A stretch of 13,773 nt of DNA, from contig JBHLON010000061.1 in assembly GCA_048940445.1 (NCBI GenBank), forward strand, positions 1-13,773. Direction: 5' to 3'. The stretch is from Promethearchaeota archaeon (GTDB lineage: Archaea > Asgardarchaeota > Lokiarchaeia > Sigyniarchaeales > SOKP01). Shown here in pieces: positions 1 through 13,773 of this stretch (position 1 is its first letter; the number at the start of each line of letters is the position of its first letter). The notes beneath the pieces were generated by a model. That model saw only the letters and a program-made list of their open reading frames with translations, searched no databases and was not told the DNA's origin. The translations under genes and the position numbers were made by a program.

Positions 1-935
1 TTAAGAAGAGCAAGTAAATTTTCTTCACCTCTCTTAGCTTTTGCATTAATAACTTCCCCTTTAGAAAAAGTTAATGTGAAATCCGAAAAATTATATTGGG
101 AATTTGGCCTAGTAGCAGTAACAACACCTTCAGTTTCATCTTTTAGAGGTAAAGTAAATACTTCTTCAGTGGGTATGTTTGCTACATACTTAATTCCATT
201 TTGTGTTGTAGCTCTTGCACTATGCCAGATATGGTCCTTTGGCAGATAAACTGTCAAATTTGTTCCAGGAGCTACAAATTTCAAAGCTTTATAATGTTTT
301 TGATTTAAATATTTACTCCTGGTTGCAAGCTCTTTAATATGTGATTCCCAAGTAGCAACCGGATCTTCTTCCTTGATTCGACAAATCTCAAAAAGAACAT
401 CCCAGAATTTTTCTTTTCTATTTTCTGGAGGTAGATTGGGGAATACTTTATCTACCCAACCTTCAACTGGAGCCGTAATTATTGTACAATTCATCACATC
501 TTTATGACGTAGATCTAAAAAGGGTTTATAATGTTTACCAAAAGTCCGTCTATATGTAGTAATTAATTCAAAAGGTTGCTTTTCCAATAAATCTGGATTC
601 ATTGCAGCAATTATAAGTATAGCTCCACCGGATTTAGCAACCTCAATTGCTATATCATATCTCCATTTTGGAAATTCTTCGAGAGTATCATTTGGAGCAT
701 TTTGAAACCGAGTTAAGGTCAGTTGTTCATCATCCCACAACACATCAACAAATTTGGCTCCTAGTTGATAAGCCTTTTTTACAATTAAACGTACAAGGGG
801 GTATAATTCAATGGGAGTACCATACCTTAGAAAAGGCGGTCCAATCAACAATTTTTGTCCTGATTGCAAATTAAGTCCTATTTTTAGAATAACATCAGCG
901 TATTTTTCTAAATTTTTTTCAAATTCTAAAGACAA
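1..935 (-). CDS. Aminopeptidase, peptidase family M29 (AmpS/PepS/aminopeptidase T-like), 3' end truncated by the window edge
   Basis: Manual translation of the - strand from TTG at 935 gives MSLEFEKNLEKYADVILKIGLNLQSGQKLLIG..., later VANIPTEEVFTLP (~147-185) and FTLTFSKGEVINAKAKRGEENLLALL at the edge, all in the same frame. NxPTEEVFT and the N-terminal 'LEKYA..I...G.N.Q.GQ' are M29 hallmarks. It is absent from the ORF track because the stop lies outside the window. Confidence 0.92.
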   Translation of the reverse strand, partial: MSLEFEKNLEKYADVILKIGLNLQSGQKLLIGPPFLRYGTPIELYPLVRLIVKKAYQLGAKFVDVLWDDEQLTLTRFQNAPNDTLEEFPKWRYDIAIEVAKSGGAILIIAAMNPDLLEKQPFELITTYRRTFGKHYKPFLDLRHKDVMNCTIITAPVEGWVDKVFPNLPPENRKEKFWDVLFEICRIKEEDPVATWESHIKELATRSKYLNQKHYKALKFVAPGTNLTVYLPKDHIWHSARATTQNGIKYVANIPTEEVFTLPLKDETEGVVTATRPNSQYNFSDFTLTFSKGEVINAKAKRGEENLLALL

Positions 936-1067
936 GAGAACTCATTTTATTACTATAATTTGATTAAAGATATGTAATCCTCATATAGTTAATATAATTT
1001 TATTTTTCTTGAATTAATTTAGGGTATATTTTAATTAGGATAAACTCTAGAAATCTTAGACATAAGA

Positions 1068-1074
1068 TTTAAAA
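1068..1074 (+). promoter_or_regulatory. Candidate archaeal TATA box (TTTAAAA) for the MFS gene, probably a leaderless or near-leaderless transcript
   Basis: TTTAAAA lies about 24-30 nt upstream of ATG 1098, the spacing expected for an archaeal TATA box with transcription starting close to the ATG. The AT-rich background weakens this. Confidence 0.35.
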
Positions 1075-1097
1075 CCAGCGATTTTATCTTTTTAGGT

Positions 1098-2297
1098 ATG
1101 AATCTTTTTAAGAATAAGAGAGCACTTAGTATAACATCTCTCTCTCATTTTTTAAATGATGGAAATTTCACGATATTGTTGCTAATTTATACATATGCTA
1201 TAAGTTCCATTGGCACATCACAATTTCTAATTGGAATTATGGCGGGTTCATTTTTTATTGCTTCTGCAATAGCATCACCTATAATTGGACGTTTTGCGGA
1301 TAAGTTTCAACATCCAACTCGCTTGATTTCTTTTGGTATATTGTTGTGGGGAATAGGCATAATTACGTTAGGGTTTGCTACGAGTTTTGGGATGTTCCCT
1401 TTGATGTTTACGGCAGTTATTATATCGGGATTTTCTTCTGCGTTCTATCATCCCATAGGAGGACTCGTACTTTCATCTACTTATGGAGTTGATGCTGGAT
1501 CGGCATTAGGTTTTAATGGGGCCTTAGGAAGTATTGGGAGGGCTATTTATCCATCGATAACATTATTTATTTTTGAATTTTTTACGGGATCATCTATTGA
1601 TATGGCATATACCCTTTTAATCATGGGTTTAATTTCTTTAATTGCTTCTATTCCCATTTTTACAATTAAAGTAGAATCTAATATTTCTGAAAATGGGCAG
1701 AGCATTAGTAAAGTTGAAGAAGAGAAAACAAAAAAGTTTTCTTCAATGCTTATTCTATTTACAATTATAATGCTTTTTGTAGGGATATTTTTACAAGGAG
1801 TGTTCCAGTTTCTTCCCACGTTATTAGTAAGTACGTTTAATTATAAATATGGAATTGATCTTGGGTTGATATTAACCATCACACTATCAGCTTCAGTTAT
1901 AGGACAACCAGTCTTAGGATTAATATCCGATAAATTTGGTAGAAAATATTCTTTTTTTGGAGCAGTTTTGTCTTCTTTAATTTTCTTTTTTCTGTTCTTG
2001 TATTTCCATTCTCTCGTTTGGTTAACAATTTTTGGTTTTTTTGCATTCAATAGCTTTCCTATGATTTTATCTTTAATAGGAGATCTTTTTCCAAAAAGAA
2101 AGAGAGGTTTTGCAGATTCATTTGTATGGGGTCTGGGAACTTCTGGAGGAGGAGCTATCGGTCCAATTTTAGCAGGTTATTTAGCTGAAATTATAGGACT
2201 AGCTAATGCAATGACAATAGTAACATGTTTGGGTATAATCCCATTAATTCTTATCTTAATCATACCTAATCCTAAAAAAAAAATTCATGAAAATTAG
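1098..2297 (+). CDS. MFS transporter (about 12 TM; Fsr/fosmidomycin-resistance-like subfamily)
   Basis: 399 aa with two hydrophobic 6-TM halves separated by a charged loop. It has MFS motif A-like GRFADKF and GLISDKFGRK, plus N-terminal HFLND and FYHP motifs typical of Fsr-like MFS proteins. Confidence 0.93.
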   Translation: MNLFKNKRALSITSLSHFLNDGNFTILLLIYTYAISSIGTSQFLIGIMAGSFFIASAIASPIIGRFADKFQHPTRLISFGILLWGIGIITLGFATSFGMFPLMFTAVIISGFSSAFYHPIGGLVLSSTYGVDAGSALGFNGALGSIGRAIYPSITLFIFEFFTGSSIDMAYTLLIMGLISLIASIPIFTIKVESNISENGQSISKVEEEKTKKFSSMLILFTIIMLFVGIFLQGVFQFLPTLLVSTFNYKYGIDLGLILTITLSASVIGQPVLGLISDKFGRKYSFFGAVLSSLIFFFLFLYFHSLVWLTIFGFFAFNSFPMILSLIGDLFPKRKRGFADSFVWGLGTSGGGAIGPILAGYLAEIIGLANAMTIVTCLGIIPLILILIIPNPKKKIHEN

Positions 2298-2427
2298 GAT
2301 GATTGAGTGTTTTGATTTAATTGCTTATTGATTCAAAATTACCTCAAATTAAAGATCCTGATTCTTTAGAAAGATTAACCAAAATGAAGATGGAAACAAT
2401 TTATTTTTACTTTTTGAAAAATTAAGT

Positions 2428-3627
2428 TTAAAAGTCGATATCTTTACCTTCAAACGCGTATTTGTAAATGTTTTCGAATTCTGCTTTTGATGGCAACCTT
2501 GGACACATTGAACCGCTGGCATCCTGAAAGCATAAATTAACTAAGGTATCAAGATTTTTATCTAAGTCATCTCTTGAAATACCTAAATCTTGAATCTTTT
2601 CTGGAAAACCTATTTCTCTAATCAAGGCTTTTAACTTTTCAATAACTAAATGAGCAGCTGTTATATCATCATCATCCCACTTAGCCCATCCTAATTGTTT
2701 TGCCATTTTCGAATAGATTTTGACTGTTTTATCGTCCTTATCTTGACTATTCATACAATATTGTGTTACATATTTTAGCATAATTCCCACACATTTTCCA
2801 TGAGGAATGGTAAAAACAGCTCCAAGACAATGTCCTGTGGTGTGTCCAATATGCAAATTTGCATTACCAAATGCTAGTCCTGCCATTGTAGCTGCCTGAT
2901 GCAAATAGTCTCTAGCTTCCTTATTTTTTCCATCATTATAAGCAATAGGTAAATATTTAAAGCTTAATTCAATTGCTTTGGTAGCTAGAGCATCGCTAAA
3001 TTCGTTTTTCCCATTTGCTATCATACTCTCTATGGCGTGTGCTACTATATCCATACCTGTATCCAATGTTAAACTAGGAGGCATTCCTATAGGGAAAATA
3101 GGGTCTAATATTGCATATGAGGGGACTAATCCTCTATGAGCTTGTATTAATTTTTGCCAAACTCCATCATTATACCTTGAAATAACAGCGTCATAAGTAA
3201 CATCAGCTCCAGTTCCAGATGTGGTTGGAATAGCAATAAACTTAGCTTTTTTACCCAAATCGTAGAGATCTTTATTAAAGATATGAAGATCATCTATTTC
3301 ATATTGAGGATATTCATACATTGCCCATATAACCTTAGCTGTGTCGATGACAGAGCCGCCTCCTAGAGCAATAATTAGGTCAGGAGCATAAGTGTTACAT
3401 AATTGTTTGACTTTCAATACAACCTCTTCTCTTGGATCAGGTTGGACTTCATTAAATATGTCAAAAGTTTTTCCCAATTTTTCTAATTTATCTGTTAAAA
3501 TCTTAAGATATCCTAACTCTTTAATCACTCCGTCTGTTATGATGTAACATCTATTTCCCATGATATTTTCTAAAAAATCTAATGCGTCTTCCCCATAAAT
3601 TATATCTGGACTAAAAAAGTACCACAA
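2428..3627 (-). CDS. Iron-containing (group III) alcohol dehydrogenase
   Basis: GGGSVIDTAK and PTTSGTG NAD-binding motifs. Metal ligands lie in GMDIVAHAIE (D,H), HIGHTTGH and PHG. TTG start preceded by a GAAGTGA SD-like sequence. Confidence 0.95.
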   Translation of the reverse strand: MWYFFSPDIIYGEDALDFLENIMGNRCYIITDGVIKELGYLKILTDKLEKLGKTFDIFNEVQPDPREEVVLKVKQLCNTYAPDLIIALGGGSVIDTAKVIWAMYEYPQYEIDDLHIFNKDLYDLGKKAKFIAIPTTSGTGADVTYDAVISRYNDGVWQKLIQAHRGLVPSYAILDPIFPIGMPPSLTLDTGMDIVAHAIESMIANGKNEFSDALATKAIELSFKYLPIAYNDGKNKEARDYLHQAATMAGLAFGNANLHIGHTTGHCLGAVFTIPHGKCVGIMLKYVTQYCMNSQDKDDKTVKIYSKMAKQLGWAKWDDDDITAAHLVIEKLKALIREIGFPEKIQDLGISRDDLDKNLDTLVNLCFQDASGSMCPRLPSKAEFENIYKYAFEGKDIDF

Positions 3628-3680
3628 TTCTATAAATCACTTCTATATTGTTATTAGACTTTTATATTAATTTTAAATTT

Positions 3681-3687
3681 AAAAAAA
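3681..3687 (-). terminator. Possible archaeal oligo-U terminator (T7 on the - strand) after the SCP2 gene
   Basis: A7 on the + strand, 14 nt downstream of the SCP2 stop at 3702. T-runs are frequent in this AT-rich DNA. Confidence 0.25.
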
Positions 3688-3701
3688 TTAGGATTTCTGG
3701 A

Positions 3702-4103
3702 TTATAAAAATTCTGTTGGTACATTTTGAAGGCTATTAACGATTTCCTGAGCAGCTCTTGTGGCTCTCATCAATTTTGCCATATTTCCTACAAGTCTTAA
3801 TTTTCCCGACATTACTCCTTGAATAGTATCTAATTCTTTTTTAGCAATTTTTACCCAGTTATCATATGGTCCAGAAAGCGTAAATTCCACATCCACTTTC
3901 TCACCCTCCTCTAATAATTTAACACTAGTGCATTCTCCATGATAAAGTCCTAGAAAAAATCTAACTTCATGATCTAAGGGACCACTAGGTTCGATTACAC
4001 AGAGCATATCACCTTCCCACCAAGACGCAGCTTCATTATAAGCAGGATTGTCGTTAATAGCCTGTCCAAAAGCATCTAACCATTCTTTTGTCAAAATTTT
4101 CAT
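3702..4103 (-). CDS. SCP2 sterol/lipid-binding domain protein (stand-alone)
   Basis: 133 aa. It shows the N-terminal 'EWLDAFGQAIN...Y...WEGD' and C-terminal 'DTIQGVMSGKLRLVGNMAKLMR' SCP2 signatures. SD GAGGTG lies upstream (4109-4114). Confidence 0.9.
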   Translation of the reverse strand: MKILTKEWLDAFGQAINDNPAYNEAASWWEGDMLCVIEPSGPLDHEVRFFLGLYHGECTSVKLLEEGEKVDVEFTLSGPYDNWVKIAKKELDTIQGVMSGKLRLVGNMAKLMRATRAAQEIVNSLQNVPTEFL

Positions 4104-4181
4104 TCATAAACACCTCAATAATTATATTTTCTAATTTCGCTTTTAAACTATTTAAAATTTTATAGAATTTAACAAAATAAG

Positions 4182-5378
4182 TTAGGTTAAAGTTAAATCA
4201 AGATGGATATCTGTTAAAGGATAAGATACACAGGGATGAATGAATCCAAATTCCTTGTCGACTTCACGGATAGTAACCCAAGGAGGTATAAAAACTTCTC
4301 CAGAGATCAATTTTGTTCTGCATAAAGCACAGTCTCCTGAACGACAGCCATTTTCAATATGGACTCCGGATAATTTTTCACGCTCTATACTATTTAAAAT
4401 TGGTTCTATGCATGAAGATTTAAATTCTATTCTTTCAGTATCACTGCCCTTCCTAAAATCAACTGTTACATTAATTTCTTTTAAAGCATCAACTTCTTTT
4501 GGCCAACCCATAATTTGGGTAATATCATCTGGAATTCCAAATGCTTCATAATACATTTTATGTTCTGGTACCCCTAAGGCTCTCAGTTCTGCTTTAATAA
4601 ATTCATACATAGGACGATTTCCGACAACATAGTAATACTTGTTCTTTATTGATCCTATTTCATTTAATATCTTATCTCTAGTTATGAACCCACATTCTCC
4701 ATTCCAACTAGAATCTGGCTCAGACAATATAAATTTTATTTTAATATTTGATCTTCTGTTTTGTATATCCTCTAATTCTTCTCGGAATAAAATATCCTTT
4801 TCAGTTAAACACCCGTAAATAAGTGAAACTTTTAAAGGCAAAGCTTTCTCAGAAATATTTCTTAGCATTGAAACAAACGGAGTTATCCCACATCCTCCAG
4901 CAATGAATACAAGATCTTTTCCATGAAATAAGGGGTTATAATACAAATTTCCTAGAGGTTCAGTTACTTCATAAATTTCACCTATCTCTACATATTCGAA
5001 CAAGTAGGGACTAACATAGCCTCCTTGTTTCTTTCTAATGCCTAACTCATAATAAGCGAGCTGATTAGGTGATGATACTATTGAGTAAGGACGTGAGGTT
5101 ATAACATTATTAATTTTAACAGTAATTCCTATATATTGACCAGCCCGAAATGGTGCTAAAGGCTTTTTTGGTTTTGCTGATATAAAACGTAATAATTTTG
5201 TATCATGAGAAAGTTCCTCAATATCAGTTAGTTTTAATAATTGATTTCCTGGATGTATCCTTTCACATAAATTTTCTAAACCATCAAAATACCAAGGTGT
5301 CGGTTGAACTTCTTCGCGTGTTTTTTTTAGTTTCTCAGCTTTTTGATACTTCTTTATATCTTCCATCATTTTTACCAT
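4182..5378 (-). CDS. FAD/NAD(P)-binding ferredoxin-reductase-family oxidoreductase with C-terminal plant-type [2Fe-2S] domain (PaaE/KshB/Hcr-like architecture)
   Basis: RPYS FAD motif, GGYVS, IAGGCGITP NAD motif, YEAF, and C-terminal CRSGDCALC...CVS (Cx4Cx2C...C). The true start may be ATG 5369 or 5366, since a GGGAG SD lies within the end of the upstream gene. Confidence 0.92.
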   Translation of the reverse strand: MVKMMEDIKKYQKAEKLKKTREEVQPTPWYFDGLENLCERIHPGNQLLKLTDIEELSHDTKLLRFISAKPKKPLAPFRAGQYIGITVKINNVITSRPYSIVSSPNQLAYYELGIRKKQGGYVSPYLFEYVEIGEIYEVTEPLGNLYYNPLFHGKDLVFIAGGCGITPFVSMLRNISEKALPLKVSLIYGCLTEKDILFREELEDIQNRRSNIKIKFILSEPDSSWNGECGFITRDKILNEIGSIKNKYYYVVGNRPMYEFIKAELRALGVPEHKMYYEAFGIPDDITQIMGWPKEVDALKEINVTVDFRKGSDTERIEFKSSCIEPILNSIEREKLSGVHIENGCRSGDCALCRTKLISGEVFIPPWVTIREVDKEFGFIHPCVSYPLTDIHLDLTLT

Positions 5379-6925
5379 CTCCCTTCAATTTTATCTTTTA
5401 AATAAAGACCTGAAGCAATTCTCCCACCTAGTATCGTGGTAGAAAAACCTCCTCCAAAATTTGTCCATGCACCTACTTGATAAAGCCCAGGAATTGCACC
5501 TCTGCTAGTTAATCTAAATAATGGTCCATTAATGACATCTTGAGTTGTACCATAAATTGCGCCTTCAATATTTTTGGAATATCGGTAATAAGTTAGAGGA
5601 CTCGCAGCTACTGCAACTTCTATGTAATCTCGAATTTCCGGGCATATTGTATTTTCCACTAAGGAGATCATACCATTTGCAATCTCATCTTTAAGTTTGA
5701 AGTATTGATCTGGAGGGACACTTTGCCATAATTTACCCATCTGTAATGTGGTTAATACAAGTTGAGTTGTCCCCGGAGGTGAAATATCCTCATAAATATG
5801 ATTATAACAAGCTGCTACAATATATTTTGGAGCTTCTAGTTTATGAAACATTTCAAAAGCCTCATTCATATCATAGTTATTATTTATGAACGTCTCATGA
5901 GCGGTTAAACCTAAATCTCGATAAGAAGCATTCAATCCAATATAAACCGAGAACCCAGAAGGTCCAATCTCTGGAGCGTAAATCTTCTTTTTGTATTCTT
6001 CAGGAACAACCTCAGAAGGTAACATTTTCATGGCGGTGCATATTGGGTTCACATTAGAAATTAATGCATTACATTTGTAAATATCTCCATTAATAAGTTC
6101 CACACCGCAAACTCTACTATTTTCTACTAATATCTTATTCACCAAAGCGTTATACCTTATTTCTCCACCAAATTTTTCAAATGCTTCGACCATTGCATTT
6201 ACTAGTGAATGTGATCTTCCCAAAGGAAATGCTGCGCCCCATTTTAAATAGAAGATCAACAAAGCAATAAAGGCATATGCATTTAATCTATTTGGTGGTA
6301 ATCCAACATACCCCCAAAGTTGAGATATTAGAGCAATTAACTTCTTGTTAGTAAAGAATTTTGAGTATAGTTCAGATAAGGTGATGCCTGAGACACGTGG
6401 AAGCCAAGGATGCTCTTTAAGGACTTCTTGTGGTTTAAATTTTCCTCTTTTTGAGGCAATATATTCAATTCCTTTTAATACCGCTTCACACATCTCCATA
6501 AATTCTTCTATACCTTTTTTTTCGGAGGGAAAAAGCTCAATTAATTTTTCCGTGTATTCTTCTACACCCAGTGGCATTGTAATGTCAAATCCATCGAGAA
6601 ATACACTTCGATAAAATTCGGGTACTTGTTTAAATTGCAATCTCTCTGGAATAATTTCTAGTCTTTCCAAAAAGCGATACAAACTGCCTTTATTATCTTT
6701 TGTGCCTATATCACTAAGTTCATGAAGTGCTCCTTCAAACTCAAATCTTCCTCTTACGAAAGAAGTGGCAAAACCTCCTGGAACATTATGTTTTTCGAGC
6801 AGTAAAACTTTTTCTCCTCTTAATACCAATTGACATGCTGCACCAAGTCCTCCAAGCCCAGCTCCAATAACTATAACAGGATATGTAGAAATAACTCTAT
6901 TGTTATCATAAATACTATTTATCAT
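5372..6925 (-). CDS. FAD-dependent oxidoreductase, phytoene desaturase/carotenoid isomerase/retinol saturase (CrtI/CrtISO/RetSat) superfamily
   Basis: 517 aa with VIGAGLGGL Rossmann motif, LLEKHNVPGG...GRFEFE, SPLTYYRY...GAIYG and C-terminal GLYQVGAWT..GGG FAD-contact segment. The substrate cannot be determined from sequence. Confidence 0.88.
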   Translation of the reverse strand: MINSIYDNNRVISTYPVIVIGAGLGGLGAACQLVLRGEKVLLLEKHNVPGGFATSFVRGRFEFEGALHELSDIGTKDNKGSLYRFLERLEIIPERLQFKQVPEFYRSVFLDGFDITMPLGVEEYTEKLIELFPSEKKGIEEFMEMCEAVLKGIEYIASKRGKFKPQEVLKEHPWLPRVSGITLSELYSKFFTNKKLIALISQLWGYVGLPPNRLNAYAFIALLIFYLKWGAAFPLGRSHSLVNAMVEAFEKFGGEIRYNALVNKILVENSRVCGVELINGDIYKCNALISNVNPICTAMKMLPSEVVPEEYKKKIYAPEIGPSGFSVYIGLNASYRDLGLTAHETFINNNYDMNEAFEMFHKLEAPKYIVAACYNHIYEDISPPGTTQLVLTTLQMGKLWQSVPPDQYFKLKDEIANGMISLVENTICPEIRDYIEVAVAASPLTYYRYSKNIEGAIYGTTQDVINGPLFRLTSRGAIPGLYQVGAWTNFGGGFSTTILGGRIASGLYLKDKIEGRW

Positions 6926-7022
6926 TAAAGATCATTCTATCAGATAACATTTAAAATTATAGATTTGGCTCTAAATTTTACATTTTAGGAAATAATTTTT
7001 AAAGAATTTCATTAATTATAAA

Positions 7023-7838
7023 TTACTTACCAATAAAATTAGGAGCTCTTTTTTCTTTAAGCGCTTGCATTGACTCATTAAAATCTTTTGATCTAAAAGT
7101 TTTTCTTAGAGCTTTGTTTTCTAAATCGAGAGTATCTGAGATAATTTCTCTAAAATAATGATGCATTGTTTTTTTCATTAATTTTATAGATAAATATGGC
7201 CCTCTTGGAGGAATCAATTTTAGCGCTTGTTCTCTGGTATATGGAATTAATTCATCTGGAGGTAATATTTTATTAACTAAACCAAGTTCGAAGGCTTGTT
7301 GGGCTGTTATTTTATCTCCAAAATAGATAATCTCTTTTGCTCTTTGAAAACCTATGTAAAAAGGTAATATAAAAGTGTTAGCAAATTCTGGAATAATTCC
7401 TCTTTTAACAAAAAAGAATCCAAGCCAAGCATCTTCAGACATATAAATCAAATCAGCTCCCACGAGTGGCATTGTAATACCTCCTCCAATAGCCATACCA
7501 TTTATTGCAACTATAACCGGTTTATTAAAATCCCATAACTTCAAACATAGTTTTTTTTGTGCAATATCCATGATATTTACCTCTGGATATTTTTTCATTT
7601 CTTCAAGCATTTCTGGCTTGAAATAACCTCCAGAAGTAAAAGCATTCCCTTTTGGGTCACCAGTTATTATAAGAACTTTGGCATTTTTGTCTTTTTCCAT
7701 ATCTTCCAAGACAGTGTATATTTCCAAGAATGTGATATAAGTAACAGCATTTCTTATATCTGGTTTTGAAATAGTTACTGTATATATGCCATTTTCTTCT
7801 TTTTCATATAATATATCTTCGAATTCTTCGACATTCAT
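7023..7838 (-). CDS. Crotonase-superfamily protein, enoyl-CoA isomerase-type active-site signature
   Basis: KPVIVAINGMAIGGG, ADLIYMSEDA, GIIPE and ITAQQAFELGLVN motifs. The hydratase glutamates are absent (T122, F143) and E151 is present. Confidence 0.9.
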   Translation of the reverse strand: MNVEEFEDILYEKEENGIYTVTISKPDIRNAVTYITFLEIYTVLEDMEKDKNAKVLIITGDPKGNAFTSGGYFKPEMLEEMKKYPEVNIMDIAQKKLCLKLWDFNKPVIVAINGMAIGGGITMPLVGADLIYMSEDAWLGFFFVKRGIIPEFANTFILPFYIGFQRAKEIIYFGDKITAQQAFELGLVNKILPPDELIPYTREQALKLIPPRGPYLSIKLMKKTMHHYFREIISDTLDLENKALRKTFRSKDFNESMQALKEKRAPNFIGK

Positions 7839-7926
7839 CTTATATTTCTAATATTATCGAATGGATTAAAAATTAATATAATTTAAACTACAAAATTAAA
7901 ATAAAAATAATTTAAGGATTCGCTCT

Positions 7927-9630
7927 TTATTTCTCTTCTTCTCGTAATGCTCTTTTTAGAACTTTTCCTATCATTGTAGTAGGTAACTCTTCAGAAAATT
8001 CCCAAATTTTAGGAACTTCATATTTTGCTAAATTTTGTTTAGCATATTCCTGTATTGAAGCTTTAATCTCTTCAGTTGGATCAATTCCTTGCTTTAATTG
8101 AATGACAGCTTTAACTATTTCTGATCCCGGGCGTTCTGGATTAGGAACACCTATGATTGCACACATTTGGATCTCTGGGTGCTTTGTCAAGACATCCTCA
8201 ACATGAACGCTATATACTTTAAATCCACTCACGACAAGCATATCTTTTGTCCTATCTACAATAGTCAAATACCCTTCTTCATCAAAAACACCTACATCAC
8301 CTGTGTGTAACCACCCATCTATGTAAGTTTTTGCAGTAGCTTCAGGTTTGTTGTAATAGCGTTTTGTGATTTGAGGACCCTTCAATAATACTTCGCCTGG
8401 CTGACCTATAGGTACTTCTTCTCCTGTTTCTACATCTGCGAGTTTAACATCTGTATCCGGTAAAGGAAGACCAACAGAACCAATTTTTTTCTTTCCTAAG
8501 GCAGGGTTAACTGTTGCCAGAACAGCAGATTCTGTCATTCCATAGACCTCTACAAACTTATTCTGGGAGTAGAAATCTTTCTCAAAGTCTCTTACAGCTT
8601 CAGCCGGGAAAGGAGCTGCTCCACTAACCCATATACTTATATTTTGTAAGATTTCAGGAGGAATATTTTTCGATTTAGGATTTCTTTGAATCATTAGAAA
8701 CAAAGTTGGTACATTACCAAAACAAGTTGGCTTTCTTTCAACTATCTCTTTAATCATATGTTCAGTATCTCTCGGATTTGCTATAATGATATGAGAAGAA
8801 CCAATATAAGTTAGAAAAAGACCAATGAATAGACCAGCAATATGAAAATATGGAAAAGCACTCATAGTAATGTCAGTACCCTTTATTCGATTAAGCCATA
8901 CATCAAATTGATGCATATTTGCAGCTAAATTAAAGTGAGTAATTTCGGTACCTTTAGGTGTTCCAGTTGTCCCTCCAGTATACTGAATTAAGGCTAAATC
9001 ATTTTTTGAATCAATCGACACTTTTTTAAGGTCGATTGGAGTTTCCATTGCTTCTAAAAAGGGAATAACTTTCTTTCCAGGCCACGGGTTCATTTTCCCT
9101 TTTGGGATTTTTTTAATTAATTTTCCCATGAAAACCTTAAAACTGGAAAATCCCATATACTCTGACACATTAGTTGGAATAATTACCTCGAGATCTGGCA
9201 CTTTTTCTAGAAATTTTGGATATACTTTTTCGTAAACTATATCCATTGTGACTACAAATTTAGCCTTACAGTCATTTAGTTGGTAAGCCATTTCAACAGG
9301 ACTTAAAAGTGGAGATAAGCCAGTGGATACTCCCCCCGCCAAGAATGTCCCATATAATGCAAATAAATACTGGGGGGTATTTGGAATATTCATGGCAACC
9401 ACATCTCCTTTCTTTAAACCATTTTTCTGTAGAAACGTTGCAAACGCTTGAGCGCTTTTTAATACATCTTTAAATAGGATTTTATTATCCATAAAATAAA
9501 ATCCGACTCTATCTCCATACTTTTCCATTGCTTTTGCTAATAAAGTTCCCAAATCTTCTGTAGGATATTCTAGCGTTTTAGGAACATGAGTATCGTATGA
9601 CTTTGTCCAAAATCTTTCTTGACTCATCAT
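7927..9630 (-). CDS. Long-chain fatty acid--CoA ligase (FadD-like AMP-forming acyl-CoA synthetase)
   Basis: YTGGTTGTPKG P-loop, YGMTE, GEVLLKGPQ, WLHTGD, DRTKDML and terminal GKV lysine motifs in 567 aa. Confidence 0.95.
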   Translation of the reverse strand: MMSQERFWTKSYDTHVPKTLEYPTEDLGTLLAKAMEKYGDRVGFYFMDNKILFKDVLKSAQAFATFLQKNGLKKGDVVAMNIPNTPQYLFALYGTFLAGGVSTGLSPLLSPVEMAYQLNDCKAKFVVTMDIVYEKVYPKFLEKVPDLEVIIPTNVSEYMGFSSFKVFMGKLIKKIPKGKMNPWPGKKVIPFLEAMETPIDLKKVSIDSKNDLALIQYTGGTTGTPKGTEITHFNLAANMHQFDVWLNRIKGTDITMSAFPYFHIAGLFIGLFLTYIGSSHIIIANPRDTEHMIKEIVERKPTCFGNVPTLFLMIQRNPKSKNIPPEILQNISIWVSGAAPFPAEAVRDFEKDFYSQNKFVEVYGMTESAVLATVNPALGKKKIGSVGLPLPDTDVKLADVETGEEVPIGQPGEVLLKGPQITKRYYNKPEATAKTYIDGWLHTGDVGVFDEEGYLTIVDRTKDMLVVSGFKVYSVHVEDVLTKHPEIQMCAIIGVPNPERPGSEIVKAVIQLKQGIDPTEEIKASIQEYAKQNLAKYEVPKIWEFSEELPTTMIGKVLKRALREEEK

Positions 9631-9877
9631 TATTCACTTATTTATTAAAATTCAATTTTTTATTAATTATTTCGCTCTTTTTATTTTTAAAAGTTGATTC
9701 TTGATTGATTAAAGAAATTGACAATAAATATTTTTTTAATTTCTAAGATAAATTCTACAAAATAGTCTATTTGGCAACATTGGAAAAAAGCTTGGTGATT
9801 TACTAATTAAACTCATTAGAATAAAAAATCATACACTTGGGATCATTGAACGCTTATATAGATTGAAATAAAAATAA

Positions 9878-10249
9878 TTATTTGGTTTTTAAAACAATTG
9901 CTATTGCTCTTGTTAGACGAATCACATCCATTACCTTTCCTTTTTCAACAGTAATTTGTTCTCGGGAAATCGCATGAGTAAAATCTCCTTTACCCTCACA
10001 AATTCTCACTATTGCGGAAGGGTCTCCAGACATCAGCACCTTTGCATCAGGTTTAGTACCATTAAGTAATTCGATTTTTCGACTTTTAACTTCTAAATAG
10101 AAAGGAGTTTGATTATCAAGATTGAATTGAAATGTCATTTCCCAGTCTATATCTTTTCCTGCAATATTCGTTACAAAAACTTCTTGTGCTTTTGGGTTCG
10201 TATTTAATTTATTTATTATATTATTTAGGTAATCTTTAGCTAGTTCCAT
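9878..10249 (-). CDS. SCP2 sterol/lipid-binding domain protein (stand-alone)
   Basis: 123 aa with the 'TFQFNL...FYLEVK...PDAKVLMS...GKGDFTHAISREQITVEKG' SCP2 pattern. It starts 2 nt after the DUF35 stop. Confidence 0.82.
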   Translation of the reverse strand: MELAKDYLNNIINKLNTNPKAQEVFVTNIAGKDIDWEMTFQFNLDNQTPFYLEVKSRKIELLNGTKPDAKVLMSGDPSAIVRICEGKGDFTHAISREQITVEKGKVMDVIRLTRAIAIVLKTK

Positions 10250-10251
10250 AA

Positions 10252-10746
10252 TTAACTCCCTCCTTCATATTCTGGTTTTGAAATCCAATTTTCATATTCA
10301 TCCTCTGGTACAAAGAAAAAGTCAGTCATCTTTCCCTCCCTTTCCTTACTAAAAACCGCTCTGACTCTTTTTCCCTTCCTTATCTTTGATGGAACTAAAT
10401 TTTCAGAAAAAATTCCTTGAAGCAGAGCTGTTTCAGCACCATCAAGTTTTATAAAACCTATACCATAAGGAATCGCTTTAATAAATGCTGAAGTAGTATA
10501 CCAGACAATTGTACTCACCTCAATGGTTCCAGTTTGTTTTAACTCCACCCAATCTGCTGGAGCATAGCAATCAGAACAATTAATCCTTGGAGGCATCCAT
10601 GTTTTACCACACTTTTTACATTTTGTGCCTAAAAGCTTTTTATTATTCATTAATTCAATGAAAAATTTGGATTGTCCTCCCATTGTATATTTATAATCAA
10701 TTTTTATTTTGTCCCTTATTTGATGATCTTGAAATTCTTTGCTCAT
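10252..10746 (-). CDS. DUF35-family Zn-ribbon/OB-fold protein (thiolase/aldolase partner subunit)
   Basis: CKKC...PPRINCSDC zinc ribbon followed by an OB-fold (GTIEVSTIV...PYGIGFIKLDG...GKRVRAVF). It has an ATGA 4-nt overlap with the upstream thiolase-fold gene. Confidence 0.93.
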   Translation of the reverse strand: MSKEFQDHQIRDKIKIDYKYTMGGQSKFFIELMNNKKLLGTKCKKCGKTWMPPRINCSDCYAPADWVELKQTGTIEVSTIVWYTTSAFIKAIPYGIGFIKLDGAETALLQGIFSENLVPSKIRKGKRVRAVFSKEREGKMTDFFFVPEDEYENWISKPEYEGGS

Positions 10747-12014
10747 GATTTTTTCAACCCCTCCTCATTTGCCATTACAATAATCGCAGCATATGCCGCT
10801 CCTGGACCTCCTATTGAATGGGCTATAGATCTACCTTTATCAATTGTTACTTGGTGTTTACCAGCTTCTCCTCTTAACTGAAGTGCAGCTTCACCAGTAC
10901 TCATAATACCAGTGGCACCAACCGCATGTCCACATCCTATCAACCCTCCTGAAGGACAACATGGAAGTTCTCCTTCTAGCCAAGGACCTTCACCCGATTT
11001 TTCATAAGTTTTTTCAATCCAAGGACCACCCTCTCCAAATGGAACAAATCCAAGCTCTTCATATGAGATGACTTCTTGACCCGAAAATGCATCATGGAGT
11101 TCAGCACAATCTATTTGCATCTTTATTTTATTATATTCTAGACCTGCCATTTTATATGCTTCTTTCGCAGCAAAAATATTAGAATATAATCTACCCATAT
11201 CCTCTCGATTACCAATGAAACAATCTGTATTGGCTGCGCCTACTCCAGTAATCCAAATTGGTTTCTCAATTTTGAGTTCTTTTACTTTACTTTCATTTGC
11301 TAAAATTAATGCTGCTGAAGCCTCTGAATAAAGACAGCAATCCAACAATTTGAAGGGATAACAAATGATTCGTGAGTAAAGTACGTCTTCTACTGTAATT
11401 TCCATAGGAGATTGAGCCTTTGGGTTTAATAAAGCATTGCCATGATTCTTAACGCTGACGTATGCCATTTGTTTTTCTGAAGGATTCCCAAATTCTTCAT
11501 AATGTGCATTTACCATAGAGACATAGGAACTTGCTGCCATCATTCCCATCGGATACTCATACGTCATGTCAGCAGAATATGCAATCGCATTTAATACTTC
11601 AGGAGTCGTTGTACCCGTTTGTTCGTCATAACAATCGTTACACTTCTCAAGTCCTATACATAAACATAAATCACTCAATCCAGATGCTACTTCTGCAAAT
11701 GCCATTCGAACAGTATATCCTCCTGTGGCGCCACCCGTCGCTACTCTCGTACCAGGCTTATTATTCATTCCAAGATAGCTATTAGTAAAAATATCAGGCA
11801 TGAATTGACGCTCAAAGAGTTCATTGTAAATCCCATATACAGTAGACTGAAGATCTTTATGACTAATTTCGGCTCCATTCTGATTTGCGTCTTCCAGAGC
11901 TAGTTTTGTTGCATCATAAGCCAGTTCAAAATAAGTTTTATCTAAATATCTTGCTTTAAAAGGTGTAATTCCTATACCTATTATTGCTACTTTTTGCAAA
12001 ATTTTTTCACTCAA
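10743..12014 (-). CDS. SCP2/SCPx-type thiolase-fold protein lacking the nucleophilic cysteine (possible acyl-CoA aldolase)
   Basis: VAIIGIGITPF N-terminus, VKNHGNALLNPKAQ, AELHDAF, PSGGLIGCGHAVGATG and AHSIGG motifs. RVATGGATGG occupies the place of RVE..CASG. TTG start. Confidence 0.9.
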   Translation of the reverse strand: MSEKILQKVAIIGIGITPFKARYLDKTYFELAYDATKLALEDANQNGAEISHKDLQSTVYGIYNELFERQFMPDIFTNSYLGMNNKPGTRVATGGATGGYTVRMAFAEVASGLSDLCLCIGLEKCNDCYDEQTGTTTPEVLNAIAYSADMTYEYPMGMMAASSYVSMVNAHYEEFGNPSEKQMAYVSVKNHGNALLNPKAQSPMEITVEDVLYSRIICYPFKLLDCCLYSEASAALILANESKVKELKIEKPIWITGVGAANTDCFIGNREDMGRLYSNIFAAKEAYKMAGLEYNKIKMQIDCAELHDAFSGQEVISYEELGFVPFGEGGPWIEKTYEKSGEGPWLEGELPCCPSGGLIGCGHAVGATGIMSTGEAALQLRGEAGKHQVTIDKGRSIAHSIGGPGAAYAAIIVMANEEGLKKS

Positions 12015-12042
12015 TTATTTTTATGGAATAATTAGTGATTGG

Positions 12043-12050
12043 TTTTTATA
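12043..12050 (-). promoter_or_regulatory. Candidate TATA box (TATAAAAA) for the thiolase-DUF35-SCP2 operon
   Basis: TATAAAAA on the - strand lies 29-36 nt upstream of TTG 12014, within the divergent intergenic region. Confidence 0.35.
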
Positions 12051-12225
12051 GTATTTAATTATTAAAAGAAGGGCGACACGATTTTGAGTCTTTCTTCAAA
12101 ATTGTATTATTTATTTTTAATTGTTATAAAAAAAATAAAATAAATTTTTTTCCATGACCCTAATAAAATTTTTACAAAATAGCACAATTTAATTATAATA
12201 AAACGAATAATGTGAACTATAATCT

Positions 12226-13029
12226 ATGTCTCATCTTGATAATTGGGCGGGAAAATATTTTAGCACTCAAGGAAGTTATATTCGGTATTTTCGCACTAAT
12301 GGAGACAAACCTTCAATGATATTACTCCATGCGGCAATGGATAATGGTTTGTGCTGGAAAAGAGTTACAAAAGCATTAGAAAATGATTTTGACATTGTCA
12401 TGCCAGATGCACGGGGACATGGAAAATCTATTTCGTATCAAACAGAATTCCATTTATCGGATTTGGTTGATGACATAGTAGAATTAATTAAAGGTTTAAA
12501 ATTTACTTCTATAATTGTTATGGGACATTCTATGGGAGCGCAGGTGGCTACTGAGCTTGGTGCTCGATTCCCTAACTTTGTCAAAAAACTTGTTTTAGAA
12601 GATCCTGGCTATTATTTCAAAAATCCAACATTCTTAGATTTGTTATATTATAAACGGAGGATTCGAAGAATTAAAAAGAGTACAATTGCCCAAATTCGAA
12701 AAATGTGCGATCAAATTCACAATGGTTGGGATGAAGAAGATAAAAACTTATGGGTTAAGGCTCAAAAAGAATGGGCTGAAAATGAATCGAAATCAAAATC
12801 TTTGAATCCAAAAAGGAATTGGCATGTAATTTTTCCCAAAGTGAAAGCACCCACATTGCTTCTTATTTCTGAAAATGGTATAGTTAAAAGACGAGAAGTA
12901 GAACAATATATTACAGAATTTAGTAACGCTAAATATGAATTTATAGAAAATGCTGGACACCATATACATCGAGAAAATTTCGAAGCATTTATGAAAACTG
13001 TACAAGAATTTTTGAAACAAAATCAGTAA
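12226..13029 (+). CDS. Alpha/beta-fold hydrolase (esterase/lipase-like)
   Basis: GHSMG nucleophile elbow, PDARGHG, LVLEDP and C-terminal AGHHIH catalytic His. 267 aa, transcribed divergently from the lipid cluster. Confidence 0.93.
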   Translation: MSHLDNWAGKYFSTQGSYIRYFRTNGDKPSMILLHAAMDNGLCWKRVTKALENDFDIVMPDARGHGKSISYQTEFHLSDLVDDIVELIKGLKFTSIIVMGHSMGAQVATELGARFPNFVKKLVLEDPGYYFKNPTFLDLLYYKRRIRRIKKSTIAQIRKMCDQIHNGWDEEDKNLWVKAQKEWAENESKSKSLNPKRNWHVIFPKVKAPTLLLISENGIVKRREVEQYITEFSNAKYEFIENAGHHIHRENFEAFMKTVQEFLKQNQ

Positions 13030-13193
13030 GTTTTCATTAGAATTGAGTTGGAAAGATAAATTCAACATCTGATTTCTATGAAAATTTCTTTGAAAAAATT
13101 TGGTTAAAATGCTCTAATTCTTTTTATAAAAGTTAGAAAAAAAATATTTATTAGCTATTTATTATTCTCATTCTCAAGTTATTCTATCGTTGA

Positions 13194-13391
13194 TTAGGTT
13201 TTTCTATGATGGAAATCTATAACTTCCCCAGATCTTATATCTAATTCATTTAAAATTGCCATAATCTTGACTCTTATTTCATTCTTCAGATTTTCACTCA
13301 TTCTATTAAATTCACTTATCTCTTCTTTATCAATTTGGTCGATTAAATTGTTTAACTGGCTAATTAATTCCTTTGCTCTTTTTATATCCAT
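13194..13391 (-). CDS. Small hypothetical protein (65 aa, predicted helical hairpin)
   Basis: A perfect GGAGGTGA SD lies 4 nt before the ATG. The ORF has an amphipathic helical pattern and does not overlap other genes. Confidence 0.72.
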   Translation of the reverse strand: MDIKRAKELISQLNNLIDQIDKEEISEFNRMSENLKNEIRVKIMAILNELDIRSGEVIDFHHRKT

Positions 13392-13395
13392 TTTT

Positions 13396-13403
13396 TCACC
13401 TCC
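13396..13403 (-). promoter_or_regulatory. Shine-Dalgarno sequence GGAGGTGA
   Basis: The + strand tcacctcc reads GGAGGTGA on the - strand, directly upstream of ATG 13391. Confidence 0.75.
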
Positions 13404-13617
13404 ATTTAATTTTTTAATTCGATTTTAATTTTGAAAAAAATTGTTTTATCACCTTAACAAAGCTTCATATCCGTGTTATAAAGTAATTAGACAGCTAAAT
13501 TGGATTAACTATGAATTAGTATCATCCATAATGTGGAATTGATAGTTTAAATCCCATTCTAAAAGAGTTCTCTGCACGATATAAGTTAAGCAAATTAGAT
13601 ATAAAGCCTAAGTAATA

Positions 13618-13677
13618 GATGGATTATGAATTTAGGAGTAATACCTGATTCAATTGATATTGAATCATAATCCTATC
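13618..13677. repeat. Nested inverted repeats (potential RNA three-way junction or competing hairpins)
   Basis: ggattatga (13621-13629) and tcataatcc (13665-13673) form a perfect 9-bp IR. tgattcaat (13646-13654) and attgaatca (13659-13667) form a perfect 9-bp IR with a 4-nt loop. Confidence 0.55.
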
Positions 13678-13773
13678 AAATTTTGTTTATAACAAGGTGT
13701 TAGTTTTAATATATGTAAACGGAAATTTAAACATATTTGCATAATAAATTGGGGGATGTTTTGTTTCATAAAA

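Follow-up and report, generated by a model that had tools for sequence, protein, structure and literature searches.

What does a thiolase-fold protein do when glycine stands in the place of the cysteine that thiolases acylate? The question is raised by P0001, a Cys-less protein of the SCP2/archaeal thiolase type (423 aa as listed), which is encoded on the minus strand (10743..12014) of a 13,773-nucleotide stretch of DNA from a Promethearchaeota archaeon (GenBank assembly GCA_048940445.1, contig JBHLON010000061.1, positions 1 to 13,773), in the following called the window. A preliminary description of this DNA had read P0001 as not a true thiolase and, together with the overlapping gene for a DUF35 protein, as a probable aldolase. 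Here the two halves of that reading are considered in turn, the loss of thiolase chemistry and the chemistry that may have taken its place.

P0001 belongs by its two-domain fold, in which the loops HDxF, GHx and xxGG are all present, to the SCP2/archaeal-type subgroup of the thiolase superfamily. Pfam finds Thiolase_C_1 (86 bits) and Thiolase_N (29.8 bits), both above the cut-off, and the AlphaFold2 (AF2) model (pLDDT 79.9, pTM 0.87) has 6hrv, 7yvy, 6esq and 4yzo as its top Foldseek matches (E ~1e-31). The protein reaches the cut-off of no NCBIfam model, the best match being PRK06064 with 298 bits (cut-off 420), and its homologues go in the databases under the names "acetyl-CoA acetyltransferase" or "thiolase family protein". 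All the motifs of the preliminary description are present in the translation where it had placed them: RVATGGATGG (90-99) with G95 (GGC, 11730-11732), SEAS (230-233), HDAF (307-310) with H307 (CAT, 11096-11094), GHA (362-364) with H363 (CAT, 10928-10926), and AHSIGG (398-403). Two further residues of importance below, Y229 and E231, are encoded at 11328-11330 and 11322-11324. Because orthologues begin with M-x-K-VAIIG, the true start is probably the TTG at 11999, which would give a protein of ~418 aa in which G95 would become G90. The residue numbers used here follow the 423-aa listing and are five too high if the TTG is the start.

In alignments with chains of the Protein Data Bank (PDB; phmmer), G95 falls on the Cys of the ACASGG loop in 7yvy (Pyrococcus) and 6esq (Methanothermococcus), and on a Ser in ST0096 (4yzo). 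Gly94-Gly95 is found in 108-109 of 108-109 full-length homologues, down to ~50% identity, which is more than chance. The homologues are labelled Promethearchaeota, Hermod- and Helarchaeota, Thermoplasmatota, Nitrospirota, Planctomycetes and Manganitrophaceae, and of the family members sampled from other phyla none departs from Gly-Gly. Invariant in the same 108-109 sequences are T97, Y229, H307, D308, A309, F310, H363, A364, S400, G402 and G403, and E231 is nearly so. The His residues had been described as kept, which is correct for H307 and H363; at position 399 the homologues have His (82) or Gln (27). No column of the homologue alignment is an invariant Cys, the best being C128 (102/108) and C361 (87/108). 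P0001 also has no acid/base Cys: HDAF is invariant and Ser400 stands at the CxG position. With Gly-Gly at the nucleophile site and no invariant Cys, a covalent acyl-enzyme is, as judged from the alignment, not possible in P0001. That the protein is unable to perform thiolysis and is not a true thiolase (EC 2.3.1.9 / 2.3.1.16), as the preliminary description held, is thus well supported by the residues at these positions.

The gene is under extremely strong selection. The ratio of non-synonymous to synonymous substitutions (dN/dS) in pairwise comparison with eight orthologues is 0.03-0.12 (0.03-0.05 with six of the eight); in three further orthologue pairs the synonymous sites were saturated. 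Of the 400 Asgard genomes searched, 104 have the P0001 gene (E <= 1e-100), among them 96 of the 134 that belong to the host's own family, where the identity is usually 85-94%.

An observation in its own right concerns short, hairpin-forming inserts that break the frame in several Lokiarchaeial orthologues of the gene, which are otherwise 85-90% conserved. L084 (10404-10432) and L085 share one insert of 29 nt, a length that is not a multiple of three, after ..CYDEQ; L088 (~10455-10530) has two inserts of 31 nt, and L042 (~3240-3280) has one more. The matches in L048, L056, L057, L086 and L087 are 30-60 nt longer than usual, and the search of the Asgard genomes returned many matches with internal stops. 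The inserts could be spliced mini-introns, insertions resembling miniature inverted-repeat transposable elements (MITEs) or artefacts of assembly; their folds revealed no canonical bulge-helix-bulge motif, and no paper describing them was found.

Where P0001 stands within the superfamily was considered with an exhaustive phmmer search of 1.8 billion cluster representatives and a FastTree tree of 148 rows that holds no reference sequence of Ltp2, Sal, SLP or SCPx. The P0001 family and its nearest relatives form a subclade of 23 rows (SH-like support 98) within a clade of 47 rows (support 97), and since no member of the larger clade bears the Cys, its loss is by the tree old rather than a recent event in an archaeal thiolase. 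There are many Cys-less lineages in the tree. The sister of the 23-row subclade consists of proteins of a "Tyr type" (YDxF, YNPF and similar), in which the His of GHP is often Asn. In a tblastn search of plasmids with a bacterial family member only matches of <40% identity were obtained, none of them family members.

The host genome has eight thiolase-fold genes, seven of which lack the nucleophilic Cys. The eighth, a canonical thiolase (C104:8004-9263; ACASSG, HDCF, GHP, HNLGG), has a DUF35 gene of its own, and a gene for 3-hydroxy-3-methylglutaryl-CoA (HMG-CoA) synthase is found on C78. Since this second pair, which bears the Cys, and the HMG-CoA synthase gene lie elsewhere in the genome, P0001 was rejected as the thiolase of the mevalonate pathway.

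The other Cys-less genes of the host are C1:43-1122, C4:48560-49783, C71:11692-12834, C71:15895-17316, C108:1004-2146 and C108:2149-3396; the loop variants among all seven are GPASGG, GGATGG, GGTTGG and a shortened GDGA/MDGA. Those on C108 are arranged in a cassette of the order DUF35, thiolase-like, thiolase-like, DUF35, a type of cassette that recurs in many Lokiarchaeial loci beside the orthologues of P0001 and its partners (for example, in L018, L028, L036, L059 and L072). On C71, two genes for beta-keto acid cleavage enzymes (BKACE, PF05853; 13016-15210, corresponding to L132:2717-4911) are bordered on each side by a Cys-less thiolase-like gene, and next to one of these bordering genes is a DUF35-like gene; the region may be another non-canonical module for acyl-CoA or beta-keto acid conversion.

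The P0001 family is characterized by more than the missing Cys. When compared with 70 Cys-bearing cluster representatives, the positions Y60, Y63, N64, R69, G94, G95, P138, S147, A161, L228, Y229, E231, G268, A364 and S400 are fixed in the family and rare in thiolases. The resulting signature is GGATGG / L-Y-[ST]-E / HDAF / G-x-GHAV / [HQ]-S-I-GG. Position 399, His or Gln, is as in ordinary SCP2-type thiolases; it is the invariant Ser400 that corresponds to the second Cys of thiolases (CxG), a site at which archaeal thiolases have Asn. The preliminary description had noted that the usual SDGA is altered to SEAS. The letters are indeed those at 230-233, but the change is better described as an invariant Tyr229-x-Glu231 in place of the x-S-D of thiolases. 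Among representatives of 50%-identity clusters, Tyr229 is confined to Cys-less proteins (9 of 61, versus none of 72 Cys-bearing ones), and Tyr229 and Tyr307 never occur together (0 of 18). In the sister clade L099-L104 the loop reads YDSF, and residue 229 is Asn or Ser. This mutual exclusion, which comes from related and not from independent sequences, is suggestive of a catalytic Tyr that is placed either in the one loop or in the other. From the alignment and from the structures of thiolases, Tyr229 would presumably come two residues beyond the pantetheine-contacting position of the thiolase loop.

P0001 does not stand alone. Its stop codon (TGA, 10745-10743) overlaps the start codon (ATG, 10746-10744) of the gene for P0002 (164 aa; minus strand, 10252..10746), so that the ATGA overlap with DUF35 noted in the preliminary description is confirmed at 10743-10746; a Shine-Dalgarno-like run, GAGGAGGGG, lies upstream. 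P0002 is a DUF35 partner protein: PF12172 and PF01796 are above the cut-off, it has a rubredoxin-like Cys4 zinc ribbon (CKKC 43-46, CSDC 57-60) and an OB fold, and it adjoins a thiolase-fold gene. Two nucleotides after its stop begins the gene for P0003 (123 aa; minus strand, 9878..10249), a stand-alone SCP2 lipid carrier (Pfam SCP2 28.3 bits, cut-off 21.3). Loci were compared from a scan of genome contigs, of which the best 80 were taken (almost all labelled Asgard, three with other labels), and from a scan of metagenomes, which yielded ~5 distinct non-Asgard loci with the full signature. Of the ~115 loci compared, most of those with enough downstream sequence have the thiolase-like and DUF35 genes side by side, in Asgard archaea as well as in other phyla, and a natural thiolase-like::DUF35 fusion, found once (P0105), supports a physical complex of the two. 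The invariable unit across the best 80 loci is the trio thiolase-like / DUF35 / SCP2, SCP2 being the third gene in most Promethearchaeota and Helarchaeota loci that reach that far; it is absent from the bacterial-type and the Atabeyarchaeia loci. An obligatory operon of nine genes was considered and rejected, only the trio being generally conserved.

What, then, could such a pair catalyse? Thiolase-fold proteins with Gly at the nucleophile position and a bound DUF35 protein are known in Ltp2 and Sal, which are retro-aldolases of 3-hydroxyacyl-CoA (PMC12329534). Their catalytic residues are Tyr294 (in YDHF) and Tyr344 in Ltp2, and Tyr302 and Cys304 (in YDCY) in Sal; YDHF, YDCY and the HDCF of SCP2-thiolases are the same loop (PMC12329534). 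We propose that P0001 and its DUF35 partner are likewise a retro-aldolase or aldolase, with a new catalytic constellation and non-thiolytic C-C chemistry on acyl-CoA, and give this reading a probability of about one half. That P0001 works in the manner of Ltp2 and Sal is something we infer, mainly from the gene order around its more distant relatives. In the bacterial-type metagenomic loci L092-L094 and L097, which are of higher G+C (0.51-0.58) and whose thiolase-like proteins are 50-55% identical to P0001 and have the full signature, a CoA ligase gene comes after the pair, as it also does in L089 and in Atabeyarchaeia. L093 has the order acyl-CoA dehydrogenase (ACAD), thiolase-like, DUF35, CoA ligase, MaoC hydratase; in L094 the order is the same with a gap before the CoA ligase; and in L097 it is CoA ligase, MaoC hydratase, ACAD, thiolase-like, DUF35, CoA ligase. 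In L102, from the sister clade, thiolase-like and DUF35 genes are followed by ACAD. No 3-hydroxyacyl-CoA dehydrogenase was found among the annotated open reading frames (ORFs) of these four cassettes or of the window. Activation, desaturation and hydration followed by a Cys-less thiolase-fold/DUF35 pair is exactly the logic by which ChsE (an ACAD), ChsH (a hydratase) and Ltp2 cleave the steroid side chain aldolytically.

The mechanism can be pictured as follows. P0001 and DUF35 would form a complex, in Lokiarchaeia with SCP2 as accessory lipid carrier, and would catalyse the reversible retro-aldol cleavage of a 3-hydroxyacyl-CoA to an aldehyde or ketone and acetyl-CoA (or propionyl-CoA), as do Ltp2-ChsH2 and Sal-Shy. 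In SCP2-type thiolases the His pair equivalent to 307/363 forms the oxyanion hole for the thioester enolate. His307 and His363 could therefore stabilize the enolate of the leaving acetyl-CoA, while Tyr229/Glu231 would deprotonate the 3-hydroxyl group and reprotonate C2, the acid/base role that the Tyr of YDxF has in Ltp2 and Sal. DUF35 would stabilize or shape the substrate cleft and SCP2 would present the hydrophobic substrate. As to the nature of the substrate, one may speculate, from two SCP2 proteins, a ligase of the long-chain type and a CrtI-like flavoprotein in the window, on a bulky, perhaps branched or isoprenoid-type acid; such an acid would have a tertiary 3-hydroxy intermediate, for which an aldolase would be necessary. 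A still wider proposal, which we regard as rather doubtful, is that of a third mechanistic class of thiolase-fold C-C lyases, with a His-His oxyanion hole and a relocated Tyr/Glu, working in a widespread Lokiarchaeial "aldolytic beta-oxidation" module with DUF35 and SCP2 as an operon-level counterpart of SCPx. If this were true, the module would offer a way of shortening bulky or 3-branched (isoprenoid-type) acyl-CoAs that bypasses both the NAD-dependent dehydrogenase and the thiolase.

Several observations speak against an aldolase. With the loop HDAF, the P0001 family has neither of the known aldolase catalytic sets (YDHF or YDCY), as far as the motifs tell, and the position of Tyr229/Glu231 relative to the thioester is deduced from sequence only. 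The ACAD/MaoC context comes from three or four distinct metagenomic contigs, and L129, also a locus of the family, is without the ACAD, MaoC and ligase set. In Helarchaeota the trio is found among unrelated housekeeping genes (threonine biosynthesis, AAA/VWA). The ligase, crotonase, CrtI and reductase genes that follow the trio in the window lie 0.5-8 kb downstream of it in ~13 of the 28 Lokiarchaeial loci with full flanks; in L012 an ABC transporter separates trio and block. Finally, the crotonase-fold protein of the window (minus strand, 7023..7838; Pfam ECH_1 169 bits), whose best PDB matches are the PaaG-like 6sl9/6slb, carries GGGIT in place of the hydratase motif GGGxE, a Phe for the second catalytic Glu, and Glu at the catalytic Asp of PaaG; for this reading the PDB alignment was combined with the motifs of the rat hydratase. 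The protein is more likely to be an enoyl-CoA isomerase than a hydratase. With both hydratase glutamates missing from it there is no obvious hydratase, and hence no obvious source of 3-hydroxyacyl-CoA, in the window. The "probable aldolase" of the preliminary description thus finds indirect support in the cassettes of the 50-55% identical relatives, which lack an annotated dehydrogenase, while the window's own crotonase and the linkage of the downstream genes in only about half of the Lokiarchaeial loci do not favour it.

The same facts leave room for another reaction proceeding via an enolate, such as the decarboxylation of a malonyl-type or 3-oxo-acid CoA, the hydrolytic cleavage of a 3-ketoacyl-CoA, or an isomerization, in which the oxyanion hole of His307 and His363 would be used and Tyr229/Glu231 would activate water or a proton. 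We consider this unlikely. In its favour, the His pair is kept while both thiolase Cys are gone, a pattern also found in decarboxylating members of the superfamily, and TbSLP, a Cys-less relative, has a weak malonyl-CoA decarboxylase activity (PMC12329534). That the catalytic set fits neither known aldolase and that the window has no hydratase-type crotonase would also be accounted for. On the other hand, ACAD, MaoC and ligase genes without an annotated dehydrogenase, as in the relatives, point to a 3-hydroxyacyl-CoA as the substrate and not to a 3-oxo or carboxylated one, and neither the window nor the annotated loci showed a gene for a carboxylase or a biotin gene.

Somewhat less probable still is that P0001 is not an enzyme at all but a dead thiolase, which as a scaffold or as a lipid- or acyl-CoA-binding subunit delivers substrates together with DUF35 and SCP2. 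Archaeal DUF35 proteins are indeed mediators of assembly, in the thiolase/HMG-CoA synthase complex and in the fatty-acid synthase (bioRxiv 10.1101/2024.07.05.601840; PMC12329534), SCP2 is a carrier and not an enzyme, and with seven of eight thiolase-fold paralogues lacking the Cys, non-thiolase roles are common in the host. However, H307, D308, H363, S400, G402-G403, Y229 and E231 are invariant across phyla, whereas dead subunits normally drift at active-site positions, and P0001 is the most conserved protein of the cluster (82-94% identity in Lokiarchaeial loci, versus 56-79% for SCP2).

A thiolase or acyltransferase with a relocated nucleophile is very improbable. The candidates would be Cys361, which is near His363 (87/108), Cys128 (102/108) and the invariant Thr97; but 21 homologues have Ala, Gly or Thr at 361 and 6 have Asn or Ala at 128, so that there is no invariant Cys column, the acid/base Cys is absent as well (HDAF, Ser400), and a nucleophile at such a position is not known from any thiolase-fold enzyme. 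The weakest explanation, a sequencing error (GGC could arise from TGC by a single base change) or a decaying pseudogene, has next to no probability and was rejected: the preliminary description had allowed that close homologues might mostly carry Cys at 95, but every homologue examined has Gly-Gly, the frame is intact, dN/dS is low, the active-site residues are conserved and the gene is widespread among Asgard genomes, all of which agrees with its argument against pseudogene decay.

The remaining genes of the window are described here as neighbours of the trio. Directly downstream, on the same strand, is the gene for an AMP-forming acyl-CoA ligase (567 aa; 7927..9630; Pfam AMP-binding 268 bits), which scores 360-405 bits with the NCBIfam models for long-chain-fatty-acid-CoA ligases, below their cut-offs. 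After the crotonase gene come those for an FAD oxidoreductase of the CrtI/carotenoid-isomerase family (517 aa; minus strand, 5372..6925; Pfam Amino_oxidase and NAD_binding_8; the NCBIfam models carot_isom, with 144 bits, and crtI_fam, with 133 bits, fall short of their cut-offs) and a reductase that binds FAD and NAD(P) and has a [2Fe-2S] ferredoxin domain at its C-terminus (398 aa; minus strand, 4182..5378; FAD_binding_6, NAD_binding_1, Fer2). The genes for the CrtI-type flavoprotein and the reductase (4182-6925) travel together in about a dozen Lokiarchaeial loci, and no genes of carotenoid synthesis were seen near them; one possibility is that the two proteins act as a C=C desaturase or saturase. 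Then follow, still on the minus strand, a second SCP2 protein (133 aa; 3702..4103; Pfam SCP2 34.6 bits) and an iron-containing alcohol dehydrogenase (399 aa; 2428..3627; Pfam Fe-ADH and ADH_Fe_C). The cluster is flanked by a convergent gene for a transporter of the major facilitator superfamily (MFS) and by a divergent gene for an alpha/beta-hydrolase (267 aa; plus strand, 12226..13029; Pfam Abhydrolase_1 86.6 bits), of which L012 has a copy, 80% identical, in the same position.

Several Lokiarchaeial loci share an ORF of 340-344 aa on the minus strand, 4-5 kb upstream of the trio, whose neighbour is an AMP-ligase with ~595 aa (L012:5189-6211, L018:5704-6726, L031:4262-5296, L039:5557-6579). 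The copy in L012 is an NMO/FabK-like FMN oxidoreductase (PF03060); it lies outside the span of the window.

These findings have consequences for how Asgard genomes are read. A preprint on an archaeal fatty-acid synthase counts Asgard thiolase/DUF35 pairs and has in its text no mention of the cysteine (bioRxiv 10.1101/2024.07.05.601840). Reconstructions that count such pairs for fatty-acid synthesis or beta-oxidation would over-count, because members of the P0001 family, named thiolases in the databases, would be unable to perform thiolysis. Few genes in the neighbourhood of this family are conserved as strongly as its own, and most of the Lokiarchaeial genomes within the family of the host have a member, so that its role matters to these organisms. 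If P0001 is an aldolase with a His/His plus Tyr/Glu site, then thiolase-fold aldolases reach beyond steroid catabolism and beyond bacteria; this would be a new catalytic solution and would provide a handle on the turnover of lipids or isoprenoid-type acids in the closest archaeal relatives of eukaryotes.

How P0001 relates to systems already described is considered last. Its closest solved relatives are the acetoacetyl-CoA thiolase of the thiolase/HMG-CoA synthase/DUF35 complex (6esq) and the Pyrococcus thiolase PFC_04095 (7yvy) with 145-155 bits (7yvy 155), which the model matches with TM-scores of 0.76-0.81 (query-normalised) or 0.87-0.89 (target-normalised). With these P0001 shares the HDxF, GHx and xxGG loops and a free DUF35 partner. 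Unlike P0001, they keep the Cys (ACASG), x-S-D, GHP and an Asn at the position of Ser400, and with the model for archaeal acetoacetyl-CoA thiolases (NF053570) P0001 scores 234.7 bits, far from the cut-off of 600. ST0096 from Sulfolobus tokodaii (4yzo; 136 bits) is, like P0001, an archaeal SCP2-type fold without the nucleophilic Cys, which is a Ser in this case; it differs in its loops (TSGSGG, HDMA, GHP) and in having no Tyr-x-Glu motif. In the literature searched no paper was found that gives it more than a passing mention.

Nor does P0001 belong with the BbsAB benzoylsuccinyl-CoA thiolase or the PhlC acyltransferase. With the BbsAB models, BbsB scores 126 bits (cut-off 750) and BbsA 22.6 bits (cut-off 250), and the Cys is missing; PhlC-type acyltransferases are distant (63.6 bits in phmmer) and P0001 has no active Cys. 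IadG/IadH was not used as an aldolase precedent, its ketothiolase role having been derived from annotation, with no aldolase biochemistry. The top Foldseek match of the model is SCPx/SCP2-thiolase type 1 (6hrv, 6hsp), which keeps the Cys and HDCF and is without DUF35, while the trypanosomatid SLP (5ab4) is Cys-less with YDCF and a suspected aldolase (PMC12329534). Thiolase and SCP2 are fused in SCPx and form an operon here, a likeness of arrangement only; no paper combining SCP2, Asgard and thiolase was found in the literature searched.

The functional comparison is with the aldolases, although they are not the nearest in sequence (phmmer: Ltp2 70 bits, Sal 63 bits) or in structure (Foldseek ranks: Ltp2, 6ok1, 30; Sal, 9myr, 50). 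CtSal-CtShy(DUF35), the aldolase for the bile-acid C5 side chain (9myr), shares with P0001 the thiolase fold, the Gly at the nucleophile position and DUF35; in the loop that is YDC[YF] in Sal and SLP, the HDAF of P0001 has His for Tyr and Ala for Cys, which places it outside that group. TcLtp2-ChsH2(DUF35), the retro-aldolase for the C3 side chain of steroids (6ok1), likewise shares fold, Gly and DUF35 partner, so that by sequence P0001 appears to be of the Ltp2 type in these respects and to differ from it in lacking Tyr294 of YDHF, for which it has His307 of HDAF. Ltp2 as described has nothing like Tyr229-x-Glu231. Beside P0001 stands a separate DUF35 protein and not the tail of a hydratase as with Ltp2, and P0001 has no steroid context; yet ltp2 adjoins chsE/chsH as the relatives of P0001 adjoin ACAD and MaoC hydratase (PMC12329534). 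The suggestion in the preliminary description that the mechanism may differ from that of Ltp2 is consistent with this comparison: by the equivalence of the motifs, His307 of P0001 sits where both Ltp2 and Sal carry their catalytic Tyr.

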